A stretch of 64,000 nucleotides of DNA from Patescibacteria group bacterium (GCA_038063455.1 JBBTVB010000006.1:39234-103233); one strand, 5' to 3'. Positions 1 to 39,099 are shown, counted from the stretch's first letter. The notes: a model not told the origin generated them from the sequence alone. A program made the numbers and translations.

Positions 1-1466
1 CATTCTTCTGCCGGGCACGCTCCGTAGCAATCTCCACCTCTTTTTGCAGTTTAACGTTGAAGAGTCGAATCTCTTCGTACAGTCGCGCCTTTTCTAATGC
101 GCTGGCAAGCTGCGGGCCCAGAAGCTGGAGCAAATTCAGGTCGTCGTTGCTGTAGGGGTCGCCAGAGAGTTTGCCGCCCAGCAGCAGGATTGCAGCGATG
201 CGACCTTCGGTGATAACCGGCGACAAGACTGCGGCATTCAATGTATCGAGCTCAGCTTTTGAACGTTCGAGCTCTGACCTATCGTTTGCATTGGTAGTAT
301 CTTCTATACGTCGCTCAAGCGCTTCCAGAACCACAATACGTTTTTCCCGGCTCAGGTAGCGCACCAGTGAACTTGTATGGTCAAGGACGGTTTCTTTAAC
401 ACTGTCAGGCTTTTCTTGAACAAATATAGTGCCACCTTCATCAGGCAAGAGTATGCGCGCGGACTGGATTTTAAGATCACTATCAAGCCGAGCACTCACT
501 TCGGCAAGGAGCTTCTTCAAATCGATTTCTTTGTTGATTATTTCACTTAGCTGCTGGAGGGCTTTGTCGTAGTCTATGGTGGCTTTGAAAAATATTTTAT
601 CTGATATTTTTGCAAAGCTTCTTTTTAAGGGATCTAAAATGAGAACAACAAGTATACTAATAAGTAATATAGAAATATACTGATACACTTTTTCTTGGAC
701 TAATTGAGGAATTACAAATGAACTTCCAACAATCAGCGCGGAAACAATTAGAACCACTAAAGAATATGTGATTGTACGCAATACGATTAATCGTATTTCC
801 ATGAACCTATGTTTTGTTATCGCATAGGCCGTAAAGCCAACAAAAAATAATGTGGAATAACTCCCAAGATTGCTCAAATCAGAATAACCAAGTAAAGGAA
901 GAAGTAGATTTGTTATTATACCAAAAATAATAGATAATACAGTGCCAAAGAAGAGATACTTTATTTGTATCCTCTGAAGACCACTAGTTTTTCTAAAACT
1001 TGAAGCCAGCAAAAAGATGGAAATAAGAATATAAAAAATAAAGTACGCTACAAAAATGTAATAACCCTGGCTAAATATTGGTGCGATTGGGTGAATATTG
1101 ATATCGCCAACACCTGATATAATCTGATTATTAATCGTCAATAACAGAAGTAGTACTGCGGGAATAAATATTAAAAAAAATGTAAACTTTCGAATTCTTC
1201 TTTGAATTGGGAATGTTGCAGTAAATAGCAATAAAAATGTGGGAATGAAAAATGACCATACAAATGTGAGCTTTGTCCACAATAATGCATTTACATTTGT
1301 GCGCGTTTGGTCGACAATGTAATTGCTTACCGTCCAAAGAACAACAGAGACAACAAAACCAAATAAAACGCGGTTAGCTATACTTTTTTTGTTTCTCAAA
1401 AAAACCAAAAGACCAACAAGAAAATTCAAACCAGCTGAAAGAATTAAAACAAACAAATCAAGCATC
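1..1466 (-). CDS. Sensor histidine kinase, N-terminal ~490 aa only (multi-pass membrane sensor domain + GAF; dimerisation/ATPase core lies beyond the left window edge)
   Basis: Minus-strand frame is open from the ATG at 1466-1464 (MLDLFVLILSAGLNFLVGLLVFLRNKK...) to position 1. About 300 aa of hydrophobic helices are followed by a GAF-like segment (...ELDTLNAAVLSPVITEGRIAAILLLGGKLSGDPYSNDDLNLLQLLGPQLASALEKARLYEEI). A coiled-coil HisKA-like start (RLFNVKLQKEVEIATERARQKN) runs to the edge. The architecture resembles PEP-CTERM-system kinase PrsK (TIGR02916), from memory only. Confidence 0.6.
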
Positions 1467-2249
1467 TTAAGCTATATATTTTTTTTCAAATAAGTCTATC
1501 GCAATTACTTCTGGAATCACAGATGACTTCCGTTTACCTAATAAGATGAAAAATGATTCCGCAATCATGATGCTCGAAGCTAGGGTCTGCGCGAGTGCAA
1601 TATTTGGAATCGCAATTTTTTTCATGACCACCTTCTCTATGGTTTCTTGTTGAATGTAACTAGTTCTGATAGGTGCATATTTTTCTGCTGGAACATTTAC
1701 TGCATTTACTTCTTCTCTGTTCATACCATCTTTTAAGCCAAGGAACTCATTAAATGAAAGACCCCTGGGATCAAATATTAATACGGATGCGCCATAGCCA
1801 ATCGCTTGTGGAGCGAGTACAAATTTGTTCTGTTTACGCGCTTCACTAGTAAGAATGTATGAGTAATACAATTCGTTATAATCAATACAATCGTAAATAA
1901 TGTCGGCCTTTGCAACTATTTCAGATACATTCTTTTCTGTAAGACCTTCCGAGTAAACCTTAATACTCGCGGCAGGATTAATATCATTCAAAGTCTCTCC
2001 GACAACTTCTGCTTTATTTCTTCCTATTGTACTTTTAAATGCACAAAACTGGTTATTGATGTTGACATCGTTATATTTATCAAAATCAGCAATAATTAAA
2101 GACTCGATACCAGACCGTGCGAGTATCTGAGAAGAGATGCTACCCATACCACCACAACCTAATACAGCGACCGCCTTTTTACGTAAAGTTTGTTGTTCAG
2201 TTTCAGAAAAAATTCCAATATTGCGGTCAAACATTTCTTCGTAATTCAT
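1467..2249 (-). CDS. ThiF/MoeB/HesA-family E1-like adenylyltransferase
   Basis: 260 aa. Rossmann motif VAVLGCGGMGS and the E1 signature DFDKYNDVNINNQF (D-x-D-x-V-x-x-N-x-N-R/Q) are present. The length is typical of standalone ThiF-like proteins. Confidence 0.8.
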   Translation of the reverse strand: MNYEEMFDRNIGIFSETEQQTLRKKAVAVLGCGGMGSISSQILARSGIESLIIADFDKYNDVNINNQFCAFKSTIGRNKAEVVGETLNDINPAASIKVYSEGLTEKNVSEIVAKADIIYDCIDYNELYYSYILTSEARKQNKFVLAPQAIGYGASVLIFDPRGLSFNEFLGLKDGMNREEVNAVNVPAEKYAPIRTSYIQQETIEKVVMKKIAIPNIALAQTLASSIMIAESFFILLGKRKSSVIPEVIAIDLFEKKYIA

Positions 2250-2255
2250 ATATTT

Positions 2256-2732
2256 CTAATTAAATAGTGTAAGTATAACTTTCAAACCGCCAGAATAAAT
2301 CATAATCCATACAAGAAAGAATAACACATTGTTAGTAAGAACTAAAATAATTCTTTCTTTGGGTGGAAAATCTACCAAAGATATATAAACCGTTGTTGGA
2401 AGCGGACCAATTGTAACAGCTAAAATTAGGGTCGAAATGACCTTCCCATATTTTACGAAACTTTCACGTTTTCTTAATAACTCTTCTTCTTTCCGTTTTA
2501 TCCAACCCTGAGTGAGTACTACGATCTTATTTCCTGAAATTATTTTATTTTGGTAAAGGTACAATATGAAAAAAGAAAGAAGAATAAAAACTATTGAAAA
2601 AATACAAAAGGTGTAGATACTTCCAATGAGTACAATTGAAGATATCAGAAGACCCTCACCAAAGATTACCAACAGTACAGAGCCAATTATTGCAACTAAC
2701 GTCCCTGAAATTTTTACTATGTATCGTATCAT
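2256..2732 (-). CDS. Small integral membrane protein (4 predicted TM), unknown function
   Basis: 158 aa and highly hydrophobic. There is a 4-nt overlap with the upstream acyltransferase gene and a 6-nt gap to the ThiF-like gene, so it is likely co-transcribed. Confidence 0.45.
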   Translation of the reverse strand: MIRYIVKISGTLVAIIGSVLLVIFGEGLLISSIVLIGSIYTFCIFSIVFILLSFFILYLYQNKIISGNKIVVLTQGWIKRKEEELLRKRESFVKYGKVISTLILAVTIGPLPTTVYISLVDFPPKERIILVLTNNVLFFLVWIMIYSGGLKVILTLFN

Positions 2733-3424
2733 GAAATTGAATACCCCTTCTTTTGCTCATCAAATTTAATTGTCGCGTCTTGTAAATACATAAATAGTCG
2801 AGGATTGTTCCTTTGCAAACTTACTTCGAAATCCTTGACACTCAATATACATGGAAAGGTAAGCCCTTGATACAGACTAGGTTGCCCAATTTTTTTAAAT
2901 GGTATACCTATTTTTAGGACTACTGGAAGTAATCGCTCATCCATCACAGAAAATATATTTTTAATATTGTGCTTCTTTACGTACAAAAAAATCCCCTTTA
3001 TTAAAACCAACATTAGATGATGGCGTCTAAATTCTTTAGCTACGATAAGCCTTGAAATTTCAGCTGACTCATTCCTTTGATAATTGTTAACGTTAATGTC
3101 AATATTGAAATGTTTTTCGATCGGAAACCCATTGGGTGAATCAAGTATAAGTCTTACAGTCGCAGCAATTTCCTTCTTTAAATCTCGAATCACAAAATGT
3201 ACCGAAAAAGAATCCCAATTATCTTTTTCACGACCATTTTCTGAAAGATTTTTGTCAATATACTTATACTCCTCAATATAAACTTGATATCTAAGGCGAT
3301 GAAGTTCATCTAACTCATCAGGGTTTTTGGTGGTATAGAATGTAAATTTTTGATAAAAACTTTTATAAAACCACCAGAATTCAATTTCTCTTCGAATTTT
3401 TTTTACCCAGGGGAAAATTATCAT
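2729..3424 (-). CDS. GNAT-fold N-acyltransferase of the N-acyl amino acid synthase / LuxI-like family (Acetyltransf_5, PF13444-like)
   Basis: 231 aa. The segment LHRLRYQVYIEEYKYID...GREKDNWDSFSVHFVIRDLKKEIAATVRLIL matches the conserved RLRyeVF..E.gw....g.E.D.fD...hHlv.....G..RL core of FeeM/exosortase-associated acyltransferases. This is from recall of the family, not a search. Confidence 0.6.
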   Translation of the reverse strand: MIIFPWVKKIRREIEFWWFYKSFYQKFTFYTTKNPDELDELHRLRYQVYIEEYKYIDKNLSENGREKDNWDSFSVHFVIRDLKKEIAATVRLILDSPNGFPIEKHFNIDINVNNYQRNESAEISRLIVAKEFRRHHLMLVLIKGIFLYVKKHNIKNIFSVMDERLLPVVLKIGIPFKKIGQPSLYQGLTFPCILSVKDFEVSLQRNNPRLFMYLQDATIKFDEQKKGYSIS

Positions 3425-3441
3425 TGTTTTCTATACTTTTA

Positions 3442-4854
3442 TTATATTGCTAATTGCTCATCAGCATTATTTCTTAGTTTCAGCATATTTTCTGACAAAA
3501 TCACCCCTAGTAGAACGGGAATAATTTTCACCTGCGCCTCACGTAAAGATAGAAACAAATCGCTGTCTAACCTAACTTTATTACCGCTTAACAGCGCGAA
3601 ACCCAAAATATCCTCGCCTTTCCCAAATGGGGTAACAATATCAATCTTTTTTGCCTTAAGGTACTTGTAGGCAACAGCACACTCTTTACGCTCGTTAGAT
3701 AGCCCCTCCTCGCTACGCAGGGCTAATTCTTCGGTTACCAATATTTGCCCTGTCCGTTTTAAAATCTTAATGAATACCTGGCTATTATTAATCTTCTCAG
3801 TAGATGAGAAAGCTGTAAAGTTTAAGTTTGTCTTATCGACAAAATATACGACAGAACTACTAAAATGATACTCTTCTCTAAAGATTTTCTCTAGGCCCAT
3901 GATAAATTCTTTTACTGAAGTTTTTTGTACTATCTTAGGCAATACTAACATGGATTCAATCCGCCTCTCCTCGTGTGTTCGTAAAAAGTTCTGTGCCTTG
4001 GAAATAACTGTAGGTATGGTAAGTAATGCAAAAATTGCCGAGAGCGCAGATGGCATCAAGACTCTTATAAATGCATCTTTTGTTGCAACAACAGCATGCA
4101 AAACCATAAAGAGGATAGCGTATGCAATGCCAACCAAAATATACAGCGCCAGCGTAGCAACTGATGTGCGAAAAATTAGACGTATGCCCAAAAAGCGATA
4201 CCGCGTAATTGCATAGGCAGCAAGTCCTACAAAAATACAAGAAAATGTTGAGTCTAGAACATTCACCTGCACACTGTTTGCGAGCATGGGAAGAACAAAG
4301 TCAACAAAAATTACAGGGGCTACCGGCAACAGTAATGCAAGGGTAACTAATCCGAATTGTTTTCTTCTCAATCCATTTTCTCGATGCCATGCTTTTGCAA
4401 TATGATAAATTGCCAGAAGAAGCAGACCGGCCACCCAGAAAGCGTAGATAGAAAATAGCGGCCCTAATTCACCATACGAGGCACTTTCTTGCGCTGTCTG
4501 TAAGAAAGACTGCACCATTAAACCTGGTACAAATGTAAACAGCGCAATCAAAAAGGTTACAACGAGTACGCAAAAAATTAAAAATTTGCTTAGCGGCCGT
4601 TGAATCAACGATCTTATCCAAATATAATTGAATCCGGCTACTAAAGAACCTAACGCAAATGTCAACGCGAGAAAGGTAAATGAATTTACTTGGTATAAAC
4701 TTAAAAAACTCGCAAAAGCCCAGGTGCTTATGGTAAACGCTACCAGTGCAAACCACCTCCTATAGGCCACGCCCTTTGCGCGTGTTGCTACAAAAATACC
4801 TAGACTAAGATTGGCTACACTGGAAAGAAGGGCAAAAAATTGGATGATGTTCAT
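3442..4854 (-). CDS. Multi-pass membrane sensor + C-terminal GAF protein (kinase-less paralog of the histidine kinase at 1-1466)
   Basis: 470 aa with about 8 hydrophobic helices. It ends in a GAF-like stretch (KIDIVTPFGKGEDILGFALLSGNKVRLDSDLFLSLREAQVKIIPVLLGVILSENML), and the stop comes right after the GAF with no HisKA/HATPase. Confidence 0.6.
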   Translation of the reverse strand: MNIIQFFALLSSVANLSLGIFVATRAKGVAYRRWFALVAFTISTWAFASFLSLYQVNSFTFLALTFALGSLVAGFNYIWIRSLIQRPLSKFLIFCVLVVTFLIALFTFVPGLMVQSFLQTAQESASYGELGPLFSIYAFWVAGLLLLAIYHIAKAWHRENGLRRKQFGLVTLALLLPVAPVIFVDFVLPMLANSVQVNVLDSTFSCIFVGLAAYAITRYRFLGIRLIFRTSVATLALYILVGIAYAILFMVLHAVVATKDAFIRVLMPSALSAIFALLTIPTVISKAQNFLRTHEERRIESMLVLPKIVQKTSVKEFIMGLEKIFREEYHFSSSVVYFVDKTNLNFTAFSSTEKINNSQVFIKILKRTGQILVTEELALRSEEGLSNERKECAVAYKYLKAKKIDIVTPFGKGEDILGFALLSGNKVRLDSDLFLSLREAQVKIIPVLLGVILSENMLKLRNNADEQLAI

Positions 4855-4855
4855 A

Positions 4856-6292
4856 CTAAGTTGATACCTGCTTCTGTGCTGCTACAATCGCGTTGTAATA
4901 CATAACCGAGGTTTGAATATGCGGAAACAAATCTTTACGGATTTTGCGCGCAAAGGCAACATCTTCTTCGCTATAAATATTACCACCCTTTCTTTTGCCT
5001 AATACAATTGCCCCAAAAAACTGATCGCCCACTCCAAATGGAATAAGCATGCTTATGTTATTTTTCTCTAAAATTCCATAAATCTTTTGCAAAAGAATTG
5101 CTTCTTCATCATTTAACCCTTCCGCTTCCAGAATTATTTCTTCTGCAATACGTACATCCTCAAATTGTCTTAGGCACTGGAAAAAAGGGTCCTGATACGA
5201 AAACACAGATTTATACGCATGACCCGCAAAAGGCTCTAAAAAACCAGTCTTGCGGTTATACCAAATAAAACCCATCTCTTTAACTTGGAACTGCTTTTGT
5301 ATTTGTGGCAATGCTTCGGCCATAAGCTTTTGTAAGGGTAGCTCGGGCTTCCCTTTAAGGATCGGTGCATCAACTTTAGGTGCTTTATACAGGGGCGGAA
5401 AAATAACAGTTGTAAACAAATACTGAATACCTTGGCGCAGAAGAAACGCCAAACCAATCCCAAATATAAAAAGAATGCTAAATGCAGCCTCACTATTCAA
5501 ACTTACAGTTTCAACAAGGTACCTAAATGTTTGAAGTAAAGATATAAGCAATATTCCACCTGCCCCACCGTAAAAAATTGTGTATACAAATGCTCGACCC
5601 ACTGCTTGTCGAAGGTTCAATAATCTATAGCGGAAAATTGCCCGTATACTAAGTAAGCTAAACAACAAGCCTGTGTTTGAAAAAAATATATACGCATCTG
5701 GGCTAATAGGACTCACTATTGATACGTATGCGCTAAGAATTACCAAAAAAACCATTGGTAACAAAAAACCAAGTGCAACATACTCTAGTTGCTTTTTTTT
5801 AATACCTGTCGAAGCTTTGTAATTTTTAAAAATTCCCATACAACCCAATACTACTATGATGCTTATTCCAGAAATGTAAATCGCGTAGTAACTTGGAGTA
5901 AAGCTCAAAAACTCATCTTTATTTGGAAAAAAATCGGTAACAAATGGTAGTACTATTACAACGCCCGTAACAAAAAACTGTAGGAACGAAAAAAAATTTG
6001 ATTTTATGATTTTAACAGGAAAACGCCAGCTAAATTGTGTGAATGAAAAGGCGACGAGTACAGCTGCGATAAGATCGATGGCAGATAAAATTGAATTCAC
6101 CCTTCCACCGGAGACAACTAGTGCGTCGACATTCACGGACAAAAGCCAAAGGAACGAAAATAATATTACAAAAAAATAATACCTGCCTCCAATATTTTTC
6201 CTCCAACCTTTTATGGCTAAATATCCAACAAACACAAAAAGTCCGACGTTAACGGCGGACAGCAGGTAAATTGCCAGGCGGATTGAGTTCAT
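4856..6292 (-). CDS. Multi-pass membrane sensor + C-terminal GAF protein (second kinase-less paralog)
   Basis: 478 aa with the same architecture. The GAF-like C-terminus reads ISMLIPFGVGDQFFGAIVLGKRKGGNIYSEEDVAFARKI. The gene stops 1 nt before the next gene's start at 4854. Confidence 0.6.
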   Translation of the reverse strand: MNSIRLAIYLLSAVNVGLFVFVGYLAIKGWRKNIGGRYYFFVILFSFLWLLSVNVDALVVSGGRVNSILSAIDLIAAVLVAFSFTQFSWRFPVKIIKSNFFSFLQFFVTGVVIVLPFVTDFFPNKDEFLSFTPSYYAIYISGISIIVVLGCMGIFKNYKASTGIKKKQLEYVALGFLLPMVFLVILSAYVSIVSPISPDAYIFFSNTGLLFSLLSIRAIFRYRLLNLRQAVGRAFVYTIFYGGAGGILLISLLQTFRYLVETVSLNSEAAFSILFIFGIGLAFLLRQGIQYLFTTVIFPPLYKAPKVDAPILKGKPELPLQKLMAEALPQIQKQFQVKEMGFIWYNRKTGFLEPFAGHAYKSVFSYQDPFFQCLRQFEDVRIAEEIILEAEGLNDEEAILLQKIYGILEKNNISMLIPFGVGDQFFGAIVLGKRKGGNIYSEEDVAFARKIRKDLFPHIQTSVMYYNAIVAAQKQVST

Positions 6293-6408
6293 AGGCAGCA
6301 GTTCATCAGAAGTGCCCAGATTTTGGGCAGTCCCCTAACTGGGGAATGGTTGACGTTTGCCGCCTACATTATGCAAGATTTTGGGGGAAAGGGCAAATTG
6401 TAAAACGG

Positions 6409-10836: not shown

Positions 10837-11048
10837 TCTGCAAGCCCTCGAGGCTTGCGGGTGTTGTGTTTGTACTCAGACAGTTGTTTTTCCTCGTGTT
10901 CGCGGTACACGGGCACCGGTGGTAGGTCTGCCAGCCTTTCCAGTTCTAGCAGAATGCACCTCACTTTCTTGGGAATGTACGTTGTGGGTTTATGAGGGAC
11001 TATTCCCTCGGGTGTTTGTTTACAAATGTAGGCTAACACGAATATTTA

Positions 11049-11097
11049 GTGTTTTTTCCTGAGTTATCCACGACAGAACAGCGCCGTCGCGACGGCG
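11049..11097. repeat. Intergenic repeat, copy 1: T-run + DnaA-box-like TTATCCACG + perfect 16-bp palindrome CGCCGTCGCGACGGCG
   Basis: Sequence is gtgttttttcctgagttatccacgacagaacagcgccgtcgcgacggcg. The second copy at 14468-14517 is about 85% identical. It sits between two minus-strand genes. Confidence 0.7.
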
Positions 11098-14361: not shown

Positions 14362-14467
14362 GGGATTCTCCTTTCTTTGAAAGAACATTATGGATTGTGC
14401 TACTCACCTCCTTTCCAGGTTAGATGAATAGCGTTTGTTGTTAGTTACAGGCTACCAGGTATTTTTG

Positions 14468-14517
14468 GTGTTTTTTGCTCACTTATCCACGACAAAAGCG
14501 CGCCGTCGCGACGGCGC
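14468..14517. repeat. Intergenic repeat, copy 2: T-run + TTATCCACG + palindrome (GCG)CGCCGTCGCGACGGCG(C)
   Basis: Sequence is gtgttttttgctcacttatccacgacaaaagcgcgccgtcgcgacggcgc. It lies 24 bp downstream of the DUF2207 gene stop. Confidence 0.7.
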
Positions 14518-21799: not shown

Positions 21800-22231
21800 C
21801 TAGACGCCAAGCGAACCGAGTGCTTCAGCAATCGTGGCAGAAGACTTTTCCGTGCCGGTGCGGTACTTGGCCCAGGCCGCGGCATCCCAAATTTCCAAGC
21901 GGTTGTAGAGTCCGGCAATAACCACTTTTTTCTTGACCCCGGCGTAGCCGCGCAAGTAGTCCGGCAAAATGACGCGGCCTTGTTTGTCTACTTCCAACTC
22001 CATGGCGCCGGCGAGCATGAGGCGGGCAAACGCCCGGGTATTCGCTTGGGCTATTGGCAGTTTCGCCAGCTTGTCTGCCAGCTGGGCCCAATCGCGTGCC
22101 GGGTACACGCTCAAGCAGCGGTCGAGTCCCCTGGTGACCACCGCACCGTGGCTTAAACGTTCACGAAACTTTACCGGGATGGCTACCCGGCCTTTGTCGT
22201 CTATTCCGTGGTGGTATTCACCGATGAACAT
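21800..22231 (-). CDS. mraZ: Transcriptional regulator MraZ
   Basis: 143 aa starting MFIGEYHHGIDDKGRVAIPVKFRERL, with duplicated MraZ/SpoVT-AbrB-like halves. It is the first gene of the dcw cluster. Confidence 0.85.
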   Translation of the reverse strand: MFIGEYHHGIDDKGRVAIPVKFRERLSHGAVVTRGLDRCLSVYPARDWAQLADKLAKLPIAQANTRAFARLMLAGAMELEVDKQGRVILPDYLRGYAGVKKKVVIAGLYNRLEIWDAAAWAKYRTGTEKSSATIAEALGSLGV

Positions 22232-22295
22232 ATTCTTCTTTACTTTGAGGGCTGGCCGTGGATCCGAGTCCCGCCTAGCGGGACGAGAGGTTCAC

Positions 22296-22466
22296 GGTTA
22301 TCCACAGGACTAAAGGCTTATCCCCACTTTTATCCACTTTTCACCGTGTAAAGCCATTTTACACCACTTTCCTACTCTGGTCAACCACTTGGCACAAAGC
22401 GGGCTTACGAAAGGCACAACAAAAGCAGGCCTTTTTGGCAAGGCTTGTACTGGGTTGTGGATAAAT
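22296..22466. promoter_or_regulatory. Cluster of DnaA-box 9-mers upstream of mraZ: TTATCCACA (22298-22306), TTATCCCCA (22318-22326), TTATCCACT (22330-22338), and TTATCCACA on the minus strand (22456-22464)
   Basis: These are direct matches to the consensus DnaA box TTATCCACA. Two are perfect and two have one mismatch, all within about 170 bp of the mraZ/HD-gene intergenic region. Confidence 0.6.
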
Positions 22467-22467
22467 C

Positions 22468-22500
22468 AAAAACCCCACACTCGTCGCATGGGGTTTAAAA
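22468..22500 (-). terminator. Rho-independent terminator of the HD-domain gene
   Basis: On the minus strand the hairpin AAACCCCA-N11-TGGGGTTT is followed by TTTTGATTT. Confidence 0.6.
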
Positions 22501-22504
22501 ATAG

Positions 22505-23794
22505 CTAGGAAACTCTCACCTGGGCTTTGGGCAGCAACTCGCTCTCGAAGTATCCAAGAAAATCAAATTGCGCACACTGCTCAGCGTAGCCTGGGTCCAC
22601 CGCCACCCGGATAAAGAACCCGCGTTGGCGTGCCTCTTGCAAAGTACGCAAATGACTAGGCACTCGGTCAAACAGCGATGTAAACCGCTTTTCGTGAACG
22701 GAAAACAAAGCTACGTCTTTTGGCAGAATTGAATCGTAGCCGTTTGGCTGGACAATTGCCAAATGATGGCGCGGAATGTGCAAATAATTCTCCAGAGCTT
22801 CTTCAGCCGCCAGGACGCGTTGAGGGTCATCAAGGTATGCACTCAGTACCCGTACTGCTTCTTCTGGCAAACCCATGACCGAGTAATAACGGTGAGCTAT
22901 CCGTTCTTCGCGCTCGCATCCTTCTACTTTCAACACCCAAGTCGTTTTGAAGAGCCTACGATCATGTAGCCGAAGCATGAGGGGATGGTGAGCAAGGAGG
23001 GCCATTACCTGGGTATCGGTCATGCCCCAAATGCTTCCACTATCCTCGGGATGCTCCAGCAAATGTTCGGTTAACGCTCGCTGGTACAAGCGAGCCAGTT
23101 GTTTGGAGGTCTTATCCAAGTACACCCTGAGGTACATAGTCAAAAAGCTGTGCTGGAATCGAATGACCTCCTCTTTAACTTTTTCTTCCACGCCCAGCGT
23201 TGTACCGTCAAATTGTAGGTAGGTTAAGATTGTGCTGGTGTTCAAACCTAGCTCATACCCGGTGTGGTGTGCGTCACGCGCCAGGTAATCAATCTTGTCC
23301 GCGCCCAAGTTCTTATCATGCACTAGCGCGCTCAGCGGGTCGCGCTGGGTAAAGAGCGCTTCCACCAGGTCGAAGTCAGCAACCTGGCTAATGACCGAAC
23401 GCATGTCGTGCAAATGTCGGCGGCCAATGTCCTTGTGATTCTCTTGTAAGACTTGTTCAGTCTCATGAGAGAATGGGCCATGACCGTGGTCGTGGATAAA
23501 GGCGTGTACCTCAAGTGCTCGAAACAACGCCGGGTCCTGAATGCCTAGGCGCTGTGCAGCCAAACGAACGTTATGCAATACGCCTAAGGCATGTTCAAAA
23601 CGCTTATGAGCGCCGCCCGGTTTAACCCGCCAGGCCAACCCAAGTTGCGCGGTGTCGAGTAACCGTTGCGAGTACGGATGGTTGATGAGCGGAATGAGTT
23701 CACTCACATCCACTCTGCCCGCAAGCGGTATGAGAATCGCCTTTGCAGGCACGTACAAACCCTTTGTGGCGCGAGGTCCGGCTTGTGTAGCCAT
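22505..23794 (-). CDS. HD-domain phosphohydrolase (dGTPase-like family)
   Basis: The HD motif is KRFEHALGV...HAFIHDHGHGPFSH...DKIDYLARD. Confidence 0.7.
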   Translation of the reverse strand: MATQAGPRATKGLYVPAKAILIPLAGRVDVSELIPLINHPYSQRLLDTAQLGLAWRVKPGGAHKRFEHALGVLHNVRLAAQRLGIQDPALFRALEVHAFIHDHGHGPFSHETEQVLQENHKDIGRRHLHDMRSVISQVADFDLVEALFTQRDPLSALVHDKNLGADKIDYLARDAHHTGYELGLNTSTILTYLQFDGTTLGVEEKVKEEVIRFQHSFLTMYLRVYLDKTSKQLARLYQRALTEHLLEHPEDSGSIWGMTDTQVMALLAHHPLMLRLHDRRLFKTTWVLKVEGCEREERIAHRYYSVMGLPEEAVRVLSAYLDDPQRVLAAEEALENYLHIPRHHLAIVQPNGYDSILPKDVALFSVHEKRFTSLFDRVPSHLRTLQEARQRGFFIRVAVDPGYAEQCAQFDFLGYFESELLPKAQVRVS

Positions 23795-31190: not shown

Positions 31191-31797
31191 ACCAATAGTG
31201 TAGCACTAAGCGATTTTGGATAAAAAAAATAGGGGCACATGCAAGCATGCACCCCTAGAGAAAATCGGTAGTCTGGACATCAGCCGTGAAGCTGGAAAAG
31301 AGTGGGCAGGCAATCCTACCTGCTAGGCATCGATACTTGATCAATGAGCGATTACGCAGGTTCCTTTCGGAGCCGGCAAGCAACTGATCGGTGCACGGTA
31401 TCTAATCGTGCGTATGAGTGCTCTAGGAGCCAGGGTCCTTGCGGTGAGGCAAGAGCTTTGCGGGATTGGTGCAGCTTTCTGCGGGAACGTGTCGACACGT
31501 AGATGACCATGTTATGGTCGACTTGCTGCGCCCTTACTCACAGAACTACCGAGTTTTCAATTTTGCCTCTACTAGAGAGGCTTTGTACGAAAGTACTTTC
31601 TTTTTGTTGGATTGCAATCTTAGCACGTATATCACGGCTGTCAAGGGTACTTGTCCACATTTCCTTGATTTTTAAGCCAAAGAACTTCTAAAAAATACTG
31701 CTTATTCGCTATGTTGAGCCAAAAAGTTATCCACACCCATAAAATATTCAATGCATAAATCTTCTATAAACCCCAGGAAAAAGTGGGTGGGCATGTT

Positions 31798-31826
31798 GCA
31801 TTTCGGCTTTCCTTCGGGTATAATCC
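31798..31826 (+). promoter_or_regulatory. Sigma70-like promoter of lexA: TTGCAT-N17-TATAAT
   Basis: Sequence is ttgcatttcggctttccttcgggtataat, about 10 bp upstream of the lexA ATG. Confidence 0.5.
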
Positions 31827-31834
31827 CCTGACCT

Positions 31835-32455
31835 ATGCCCCCTATCCTCCACAAGCAAAAACGCGCCATCCTCAAATTCCTGCAAGAATACATCCGGGAA
31901 AATGGGGCTGCGCCAACGCTTACCGAAATCGCCAAAGTTTTTAAGCTTTCTTCGTTAGCCACAGTTCACGAGCACTTGGCGTTTTTAGAACAGGCCGGTT
32001 TTATTAAACGGGACCGGAACAATACGCGCGGAATAGAACTAGTTGAACCTGAGCAGGACACAGCCTTCACCGCTGCCTCCATGCTGTTGCCTTTGGTTGG
32101 CACCATTGCGGCTGGCTCCCCTATCGAAGCCGTAGAAGACAAGCAAGAAATGATTTCTGTGCCGCAAGAATTAGTTGGCAAGAAAAACGCTTACATTCTT
32201 AAAGTCCGCGGCGACTCGATGATTGAAAGCTTGGTTGCAGACGGCGACTACGTGGTGGTGGAAAAGAGCGAGTTAGCACACGATGGCGACATGGTGGTGG
32301 CGATGCTCGATGATGGCACGGCAACGCTAAAAAAGTTTTTCCGAAAGAAAAATTTTATTCGCTTGCAACCGGCCAATACCAACTACAAACCCATTGATGT
32401 AAAGAACGTTACGATTCAGGGTAAAGTTATTGGCGTGATTCGGAAATACGCCTAA
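31835..32455 (+). CDS. lexA: LexA repressor
   Basis: It has a wHTH N-terminus, the AAG autocleavage site (GTIAAGSP) and the S24 peptidase Ser/Lys dyad (GDSM ... K). Confidence 0.85.
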   Translation: MPPILHKQKRAILKFLQEYIRENGAAPTLTEIAKVFKLSSLATVHEHLAFLEQAGFIKRDRNNTRGIELVEPEQDTAFTAASMLLPLVGTIAAGSPIEAVEDKQEMISVPQELVGKKNAYILKVRGDSMIESLVADGDYVVVEKSELAHDGDMVVAMLDDGTATLKKFFRKKNFIRLQPANTNYKPIDVKNVTIQGKVIGVIRKYA

Positions 32456-32549: not shown

Positions 32550-32579
32550 TACTTTCCTCTTTCGGTTTTATTTCGGCTC

Positions 32580-38800: not shown

Positions 38801-39099
38801 TGCACCTCCTCCAGTATCCACTCCAGGCTTTCGGGGTTGTAGGCCAGCACGTAGCTATTCGCTGCATCTGACACGGCAAAGCACCAGTCATAGCCCTTTC
38901 CCCGCCGCCGCTGGTACACCAGGTTCACGCTAGCCACGTCGTAGCGCCGGCCACCCCAAAAGAAAGCTTTGGGCTGGATCTGCTTGCCGTTGAAGTCAAC
39001 GAAGACCCGAACCGGCGCATGGGGTTGTTCGTGGAAAACCAGCATATATGTGCCTTCTAGCATAACCGAATAAAAGCCGAAAGTCAAGAATAACAACAT
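38791..39099 (-). CDS. Hypothetical protein
   Basis: 102 aa ORF with an N-terminal hydrophobic segment. Confidence 0.3.
   Translation of the reverse strand: MLLFLTFGFYSVMLEGTYMLVFHEQPHAPVRVFVDFNGKQIQPKAFFWGGRRYDVASVNLVYQRRRGKGYDWCFAVSDAANSYVLAYNPESLEWILEEVQGQ

Follow-up and report, generated by a model that had tools for sequence, protein, structure and literature searches.

The division/cell-wall (dcw) operon has its regulatory region in the 273-bp spacer upstream of mraZ, which is not an origin of replication. The layout of this spacer is conserved among relatives and matches the published MraZ repeat pattern. To judge from these sequences, the spacer would hold a composite operator at the dcw promoter, used by both MraZ and DnaA, and a further DnaA site would lie at lexA; with the binding of DnaA as its predicted part, this reading is given a probability of roughly 0.6. 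The original prediction that DnaA controls the dcw operon and the SOS regulator gains support, as dozens of related genomes have retained the perfect boxes at orthologous positions and the substitutions found in them fit the consensus of a putative DnaA site.

The window, i.e., the whole stretch of DNA that was analyzed (64 kb, positions being counted from its first letter), stems from a Kerfeldbacteria-like Patescibacterium; the best relatives of its MraZ (up to 96% identity) are encoded by Patescibacteria MAGs (Kerfeldbacteria, Uhrbacteria, Magasanikbacteria, "Parcubacteria group"), and GCA_964364675.1 encodes an identical MraZ. Of four proteins encoded near the right end of the window, three had no recorded match and one maps to a separate 3.5-kb contig of GCA_964364675.1, so that the window belongs to another assembly of this organism or of a nearly identical one. 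The identities of mraZ and lexA, as first called, were borne out by Pfam domains. MraZ matches its Pfam model in two stretches and has both DXXXR motifs intact (DDKGR and DKQGR); the genes after mraZ are rsmH, an ftsL-like gene, and genes for a PBP and Mur ligases. The left end of the window (1–6300) has a GC content of 34–39%, compared with 51% for the window, and encodes an autoinducer-synthase/FeeM-like acyltransferase (2729–3424), two HisKA_7TM proteins, and a ThiF-like protein, a gene content unusual for a CPR genome; this stretch may be a horizontally acquired island. Read in the direction of mraZ transcription, the spacer and the genes bordering it contain the following features:

22505–23794, minus strand: upstream gene encoding a protein with a Pfam HD domain
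22470–22496, minus strand: intrinsic terminator of the upstream HD-domain gene (11-bp stem, then a T-run)
22456–22464, minus strand: upstream perfect DnaA box, reading TTATCCACA on the mraZ coding strand
22429–22444, minus strand: small hairpin, GCCTT-GCCAAA-AAGGC, followed by CTGCTTTTGT and flagged as terminator-like
22356–22384, minus strand: promoter Pmra (−35 TTGACC at 22384–22379, 17-nt spacer, −10 TAAAAT at 22361–22356)
22318–22347, minus strand: MraZ operator, three repeats with a 10-bp period, reading ACGGTGAAAAGTGGATAAAAGTGGGGATAA
22298–22306, plus strand: downstream perfect DnaA box, reading TGTGGATAA on the mraZ strand
22267–22284, minus strand: 5′-UTR hairpin, GTCCCGC-TAGG-GCGGGAC, as read from the sequence
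21800–22231, minus strand: mraZ (Pfam MraZ, E = 3.8e-38), first gene of the dcw cluster

The upstream box begins 5 nt past the terminator stem. The small hairpin between this box and the promoter could be a second weak terminator or a UP-like A/T tract; its stem is retained with a different sequence in three related loci (L001, L004, and L005). A conserved CTTGYCAAAA loop, followed by TTTTGTYGTGG, was also observed at this hairpin. TTGACC-17-TAAAAT is the sole sigma-70-like match in the spacer region, and the 17 nt between its two elements include a GTGG (22367–22364). The MraZ repeats begin ∼9 nt past the −10 element; the operator spans about +3 to +32 and consists of ACGG (22347), GTGG (22337), and GTGG (22327), with more GTGG in phase at 22367 and 22388. 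The downstream box follows 11 nt past the repeat pair, at about +44 to +52 of the predicted transcript; a comparable GC hairpin, different in sequence, is found in the mraZ 5′-UTR of the closest relatives.

This spacer had originally been described as a cluster of four DnaA boxes, and all four sequence matches are present: the perfect boxes were found exactly at 22298–22306 (+) and 22456–22464 (−), and the one-mismatch boxes, TTATCCCCA and TTATCCACT, at 22318–22326 and 22330–22338, respectively. The perfect box reported near lexA exists as well, at 31727–31735 (+), with the coordinate first given for it (31726–31734) being one base low. These are the only three perfect copies of TTATCCACA in the 64-kb window, a fourth being absent from it, compared with 0.31 expected; three or more copies were obtained in 0 of 100 shuffles. 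Matches to the 9-mer with at most one mismatch number 24 in the whole window (11.65 expected), and the occurrence of four of them within one 273-bp spacer corresponds to a Poisson P of ∼4e-6, or ∼1e-3 when corrected for all 273-bp windows. The 8-mer core TTATCCAC occurs nine times, in six cases in intergenic DNA, which makes up 13% of the window (P = 3e-4). The perfect boxes at 22298, 22456, and 31727 all fit the DnaA-box consensus TTWTNCACA (as used in PMC7561715), and TTATCCACA is the putative box of this lineage's DnaA.

The two one-mismatch boxes, however, are repeats 2 and 3 of the predicted MraZ operator, an assignment based on conservation among relatives, the published repeat pattern, the layout of the E. 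coli promoter, and the intact DXXXR motifs. The comparison set consisted of 80 related mraZ loci, 67 of which were anchored for promoter and repeat counts; since the relatives are phylogenetically clustered, counts across them do not represent independent events. The order across these loci is −35, −10, GTGG repeats with a 10-bp period, and nGTGGATAA at a fixed offset. Whereas AAGTGGTGTAAAATGG is nearly invariant in all 67 anchored loci, the block TTGAC-N11-AAGTGGTGTAAAATGG-N8-GGTGAAAAGTGGATAAAAGTGGGGATAA-N11-nGTGGATAAC is so in the Kerfeldbacteria-like half of the set. An exact GTGG-N6-GTGG is present just 3′ of the −10 in 65 of the 67, and in all lineages GTGG is phased at −21, 0, +20, +30, +40, and +62 relative to the GTGG beside the −10. 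The operator of B. subtilis MraZ contains three GTGG[A/T]G with 4-nt spacers, the published pattern for Firmicutes is GTGGNNNNNAGTGGNG, and the Mollicutes repeats read AAAGTG[T/G]. The layout of E. coli Pmra is the same as that observed here, its −10 being followed by AGTGGGAAATTGTGGGGCAAAGTGGGAATAAGG, and its third repeat (AAGTGGGAATAAG) is nearly equal to AAGTGGGGATAAG of the window. The spacer combines at least three direct GTGG/TGGG-type repeats with a position at an mraZ-led promoter and a cognate MraZ carrying two DXXXR motifs, the sequence features expected of such an operator. Because the one-mismatch pair consists of canonical MraZ repeats, what had been taken for a four-box DnaA cluster comes down to two good boxes flanking an MraZ operator. 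An altered specificity of MraZ was considered as the origin of the ATAA tails of the repeats and rejected, as loci having these tails and loci lacking them encode essentially the same DNA-binding segments.

The flanking boxes differ from the repeats they enclose in the substitutions they tolerate. The last G of GTGG was replaced in 0 of 132 cases in the repeat pair, versus 11 of 47 (by C, T, or A) in the downstream boxes (P = 1.6e-7), and the position concerned is the N of TTWTNCACA. The downstream box, whose 11-nt offset is kept in 35 of 47 loci, varies solely at the positions corresponding to 5 and 9 of TTATCCACA; in the variants GTGCATAA and GTGTATAA, the MraZ core is broken, yet both fit TTATNCACA. 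In about 30 related loci, the upstream box precedes the promoter, and it is inverted, unlike the direct repeats of MraZ; among its variants is TTTTCCACA, which corresponds to the W of the consensus. Upstream, downstream, and lexA boxes have a flank preference in common (A at −2, G at −1). Conservation at orthologous promoters, with substitutions at degenerate positions, is what would be expected of DnaA sites, and it was observed at lexA (10 of 10 close loci; see below) and at mraZ, where a consensus box is present in 44 of 76 upstream regions (58%) compared with 22 of 1,283 control windows (1.7%) drawn from the same loci. For the perfect box, the respective counts are 33 of 76 and 3 of 1,283. 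Of those loci in which the MraZ repeats lack ATAA, 17 of 32 keep a consensus box, mostly a perfect one. Two observations count against the composite reading: 32 of the 76 related mraZ loci have no consensus box within 300 bp, and the nucleotide corresponding to position 9 (T29/A10/G7) varies more than the textbook consensus predicts. Elsewhere in the 80 loci, the consensus was hit 23 times in 402 kb of coding sequence and 4 times in 34 kb of other intergenic DNA, and on these counts a generic intergenic repeat or promoter element was rejected. In E. coli K-12 (NC_000913.3; positions 391–399 of locus L114), a consensus-fitting TTTTCCACA was noticed ∼160 bp 5′ of the −35 of Pmra, but such a match also arose in 53 of 200 shuffles and by itself lacks significance.

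The main rival of the composite reading is that MraZ binds all of these sites. In that case, every box, including the one at lexA, would be an MraZ site, the MraZ of this clade would prefer GTGG followed by ATAA, lexA would belong to the MraZ regulon, and the match to the DnaA box would be coincidental. GTGG or a near copy of it is indeed present in every box, the downstream box is about two helical turns (22 bp) away from the last repeat and in phase with it, and the downstream box tends to be found where the repeats are of the ATAA type (36/6/5/34; P = 1.7e-11). Moreover, E. coli MraZ is reported as binding a site that overlaps the mioC DnaA box (Eraso et al, 2014, cited in PMC4446571); given this overlap and the GTGG contained in GTGGATAA, MraZ could occupy some or all of the boxes. 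However, the downstream box tolerates the loss of GTGG (GTGC or GTGT; 11/47), which the true repeats never do, and the upstream box and the lexA box each stand alone, the former being inverted, whereas known operators consist of at least two direct repeats with a 10-bp period. In addition, the perfect TTATCCACA persists in lineages whose repeats are without ATAA, and the DNA-binding motifs of MraZ are alike in both groups. That MraZ alone accounts for all of the boxes is unlikely.

The surroundings of the upstream box raise another question. In 11–13 of the about 30 loci, it directly follows the T-run of a terminator, and this frequent proximity of upstream copies to terminators might mean that they do something other than control the promoter. 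Instead of DnaA, a different CPR-specific regulator could read aGTTATCCACAg, or the motif could be a terminator- or −35-proximal element. Further modules composed of a terminator and CGTGGATAA at 11.1 and 14.5 kb would agree with this, as would the box located 6 nt upstream of the −35 in the divergent RNA promoter at lexA (see below). On the other hand, the motif agrees at all nine positions with the DnaA box, which is near-universal, and tolerates substitutions where that box is known to be degenerate; this is unlikely to be a coincidence. In addition, few copies occur in the remaining intergenic DNA of these genomes. A CPR-specific regulator or such an element is decidedly improbable. The modules themselves (11000–11097 and 14420–14517, minus strand) are paralogous, intergenic, and ∼95 nt long each; in both, the terminator GCGCCGTCGCGACGGCGC is followed by TTTTGT or TTCTGT, by CGTGGATAA (a DnaA box with a mismatch at position 9), and by AAAAAACAC...TAGCCT...AACAAAC. 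One precedes a gene for an M23 peptidase, the other a gene for a 166-aa protein; together with mraZ, the modules make three terminator-plus-box junctions in the window.

If DnaA does bind, the boxes might still serve as a reservoir that titrates it, without any transcriptional role and intergenic by chance, as is the case for datA of E. coli or the clusters of B. subtilis. Two perfect and one or two imperfect boxes within 167 bp would be compatible with this, and DnaA sinks near promoters have been discussed for B. subtilis and M. pneumoniae. However, only two to three of the boxes are credible, far fewer than in the known clusters. datA contains at least five boxes plus IHF, and the clusters of B. 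subtilis contain about nine boxes each. Compared with a dense array of about 5–9 or more boxes (a threshold from general knowledge), the spacer has two perfect boxes, the plausible hybrid TTATCCACT, and the poor hybrid TTATCCCCA. The fixed place of the downstream box in the 5′-UTR/operator region and the distance of 75–77 nt between the box and the candidate operator at lexA in 6 of 10 loci also argue for a promoter-coupled function. Pure titration is very unlikely.

An origin displaced from dnaA, the second suggestion of the original prediction, has the cluster of DnaA-box-like 9-mers in its favor but could not be upheld. Cumulative GC skew drifts through the 64-kb window with no turn at 22.3 kb, at either 2-kb or 500-bp resolution, and no strand switch is associated with the spacer, the genes to its left and right (1–31 kb) being nearly all encoded by the minus strand. 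The GC content of the spacer is 48%, with no AT-rich unwinding element (DUE) beside the boxes; the 40-mer lowest in GC (35%) is inside mraZ. No DnaA-trio array was found in the spacer, only two isolated 9-nt trio-like strings. As had been noted from the start, neither dnaA nor dnaN is present in the window; the 10 kb to its left contain no replication genes, and a tblastn search of 664 kb of sequence for dnaA, with a fragment of E. coli DnaA as the query, gave no match. Instead, the spacer is fully occupied by the conserved promoter, operator, and 5′-UTR, with the boxes at fixed positions inside. A chromosomal oriC at this place is extremely improbable.

The third perfect box belongs to a second conserved promoter region, that of lexA, for which the following features were recorded:

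31225–31644, minus strand: divergent transcription unit with promoter TTGACA-16-TAAGAT and a terminator at 31257–31230
31651–31659, plus strand: box TTGTCCACA, with one mismatch, separated by 6 nt from the −35 element of the divergent promoter (minus strand)
31727–31735, plus strand: perfect DnaA box, 60 nt 5′ of the lexA −35
31796–31824, plus strand: lexA promoter, TTGCAT-17-TATAAT, as read from the sequence
31802–31817, plus strand: candidate LexA operator TTCGGCTTTCCTTCGG, in the −35/−10 spacer of the lexA promoter
31835–32455, plus strand: lexA (Pfam Peptidase_S24, E = 1.8e-32; LexA_DNA_bind, E = 1.1e-13)

A metagenome scan yielded 30 lexA loci, among them a close set composed of nine relatives (LexA 65–91% identical) and the window. 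All ten members of this set have an exact TTATCCACA in the same orientation, despite differing flanks and upstream neighbours, and nine of them have the 5′ flank AAG on the box; no box is present upstream of lexA in the 17 distant loci. The distance between the box and the promoter motif is 54–139 nt, with 75–77 nt in 6 of the 10. Also common to all ten is the direct repeat TTCGG-N6-TTCGG (TTCGGyTTTnnTTCGG), which was detected in the promoter region of 0 of the 17 distant loci (one unrelated match is located 219 nt upstream in L103) and is a candidate for the LexA operator (SOS box) of this lineage. The same repeat was observed at 39066–39081 (−), in the −35/−10 spacer of a small-ORF promoter at 39.07 kb (CTTGAC-TTTCGGCTTTTATTCGG-TTATGCT), and a third copy at 32561–32576 (+), just 3′ of lexA.

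The box had been placed ∼100 bp upstream of lexA, inside a 644-bp noncoding region; the region is there, but it holds a unit extending from a promoter to a terminator, so that "noncoding" had to be corrected. This unit (31225–31644), which contains no ORF of at least 60 aa on its strand, is probably an unannotated structured RNA of the CPR clade, 300–385 nt in length. Homologs were identified in three loci (L084 2356–2649, L086 2303–2610, and L087 2409–2717) and have a conserved core of ∼300 nt, the 5′ end of which (TTGAAAACTCGGTAG) pairs with the 3′ end (CTACCGATTTTC). RNAalifold applied to the four RNA sequences predicted 74 pairs, only 3 with compensatory changes; in Rfam, only tRNAs reach the gathering threshold in the window, with nothing credible in the lexA upstream region. 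The arrangement of box and promoter, TGTGGAyAw-N6-CTTGAC, is conserved in seven of seven aligned loci. In locus L088, two perfect TTATCCACA boxes (398–406 and 474–482) were observed 76 nt apart and 2.5 kb from lexA, with CTTGTCA on the other strand at a distance of 6 nt from the first; this double-box geometry is the same as that seen in the window in the interval separating lexA from the RNA gene.

In the composite arrangement proposed here, MraZ would repress its own operon by occupying the repeats, which is its known mechanism, and DnaA would bind the two flanking high-affinity boxes and possibly also the hybrid repeat AGTGGATAA. Bound DnaA could modulate initiation, elongation, or read-through into dcw, with a roadblock, looping between the inverted boxes, and competition with MraZ as possible modes. 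The downstream box, at about +44 to +52, could form such a roadblock; for the upstream box, which often comes right after a terminator, curbing read-through or pairing with the downstream box would be conceivable; and the hybrid repeat AGTGGATAA would permit competition between DnaA and MraZ. The extended box aGTTATCCACA, upstream of lexA and beside the −35 of the divergent RNA, would make the SOS repressor a member of this small DnaA regulon, and sharing the regulon would link replication status to both division and the DNA-damage response. A more far-reaching version is put forward tentatively, with the odds somewhat against it: in Kerfeldbacteria, Uhrbacteria, Magasanikbacteria, and their relatives, DnaA may be hard-wired into a minimal cell-cycle circuit, with its boxes bracketing and partly overlapping the MraZ operator, DnaA and MraZ competing or cooperating, and lexA and the structured RNA under the same control.

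CPR/Patescibacteria are uncultivated organisms with tiny genomes and few regulators and, to our knowledge, almost nothing is known of their gene regulation. If DnaA binds, the replication initiator would be linked directly, and in a conserved manner, with both lexA and the mraZ/dcw promoter, and nature would provide an example of one operator shared by two cell-cycle regulators; if the hard-wired circuit were true as well, replication initiation would be coupled to division and SOS in regulator-poor organisms. The ∼90-bp promoter-operator, nearly invariant over many genera, provides targets that can be synthesized for in vitro work (MraZ repeats, DnaA boxes, and the candidate LexA operator). 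For annotation, the consequence is that "DnaA-box clusters" 5′ of mraZ can in part be MraZ repeats and should not be called origins.

Regarding known systems, the spacer shares with oriC and with titration clusters (datA and the DnaA-box clusters of B. subtilis) the presence of several DnaA-box-like 9-mers within 200 bp, but it differs from them by lacking an unwinding element, DnaA-trios, a skew or strand switch, and an adjacent dnaA or dnaN, and by having too few credible boxes. Precedents for DnaA as a transcription factor are the autoregulation of dnaA, sda and ywlC in B. subtilis, and ftsZ and gcrA in Caulobacter. As in such promoters, isolated high-affinity TTWTNCACA 9-mers are located at promoters, conserved, and tied to cell-cycle genes, with the difference that binding is predicted here. 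In work dating from 1988–89, Schaefer and Messer reportedly found the complex of DnaA and its box to be a transcriptional roadblock at asnC and dnaA of E. coli. The box in the transcribed 5′ region (+44 to +52) and the one behind a terminator would resemble these cases, by analogy only. DnaA also acts as a transcription factor in the genome-reduced M. pneumoniae, on dnaN and on nucleotide-metabolism genes.

The likeness to the MraZ operators of E. coli, B. subtilis, and Mollicutes consists in direct GTGG/TGGG-type repeats with a 10-bp period, immediately 3′ of the −10 or overlapping it. As with the known Pmra, the promoter drives mraZ-rsmH-ftsL-pbp, and the gene directly after the operator encodes an MraZ that has two DXXXR motifs. 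In contrast to the known operators, the repeats of this clade have an invariant ATAA tail, which makes them one-mismatch DnaA boxes, and they are bracketed by two perfect DnaA boxes, an arrangement not described in the literature found. Overlap of MraZ-type and DnaA-type sequences is shared with E. coli mioC, GTGG being contained in TGTGGATAA here; however, mioC is a secondary MraZ target next to oriC, whereas the overlap described here is conserved in a clade and located in the primary, autoregulated Pmra operator. The literature searched did not link DnaA boxes to mraZ/dcw promoters or to Patescibacteria, and neither mraZ/dcw and lexA as targets nor the phylum Patescibacteria was found there in connection with regulation by DnaA. 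Both components are known kinds of element; the novelty seems to lie in their conserved combination, in the targets, and in the phylum.
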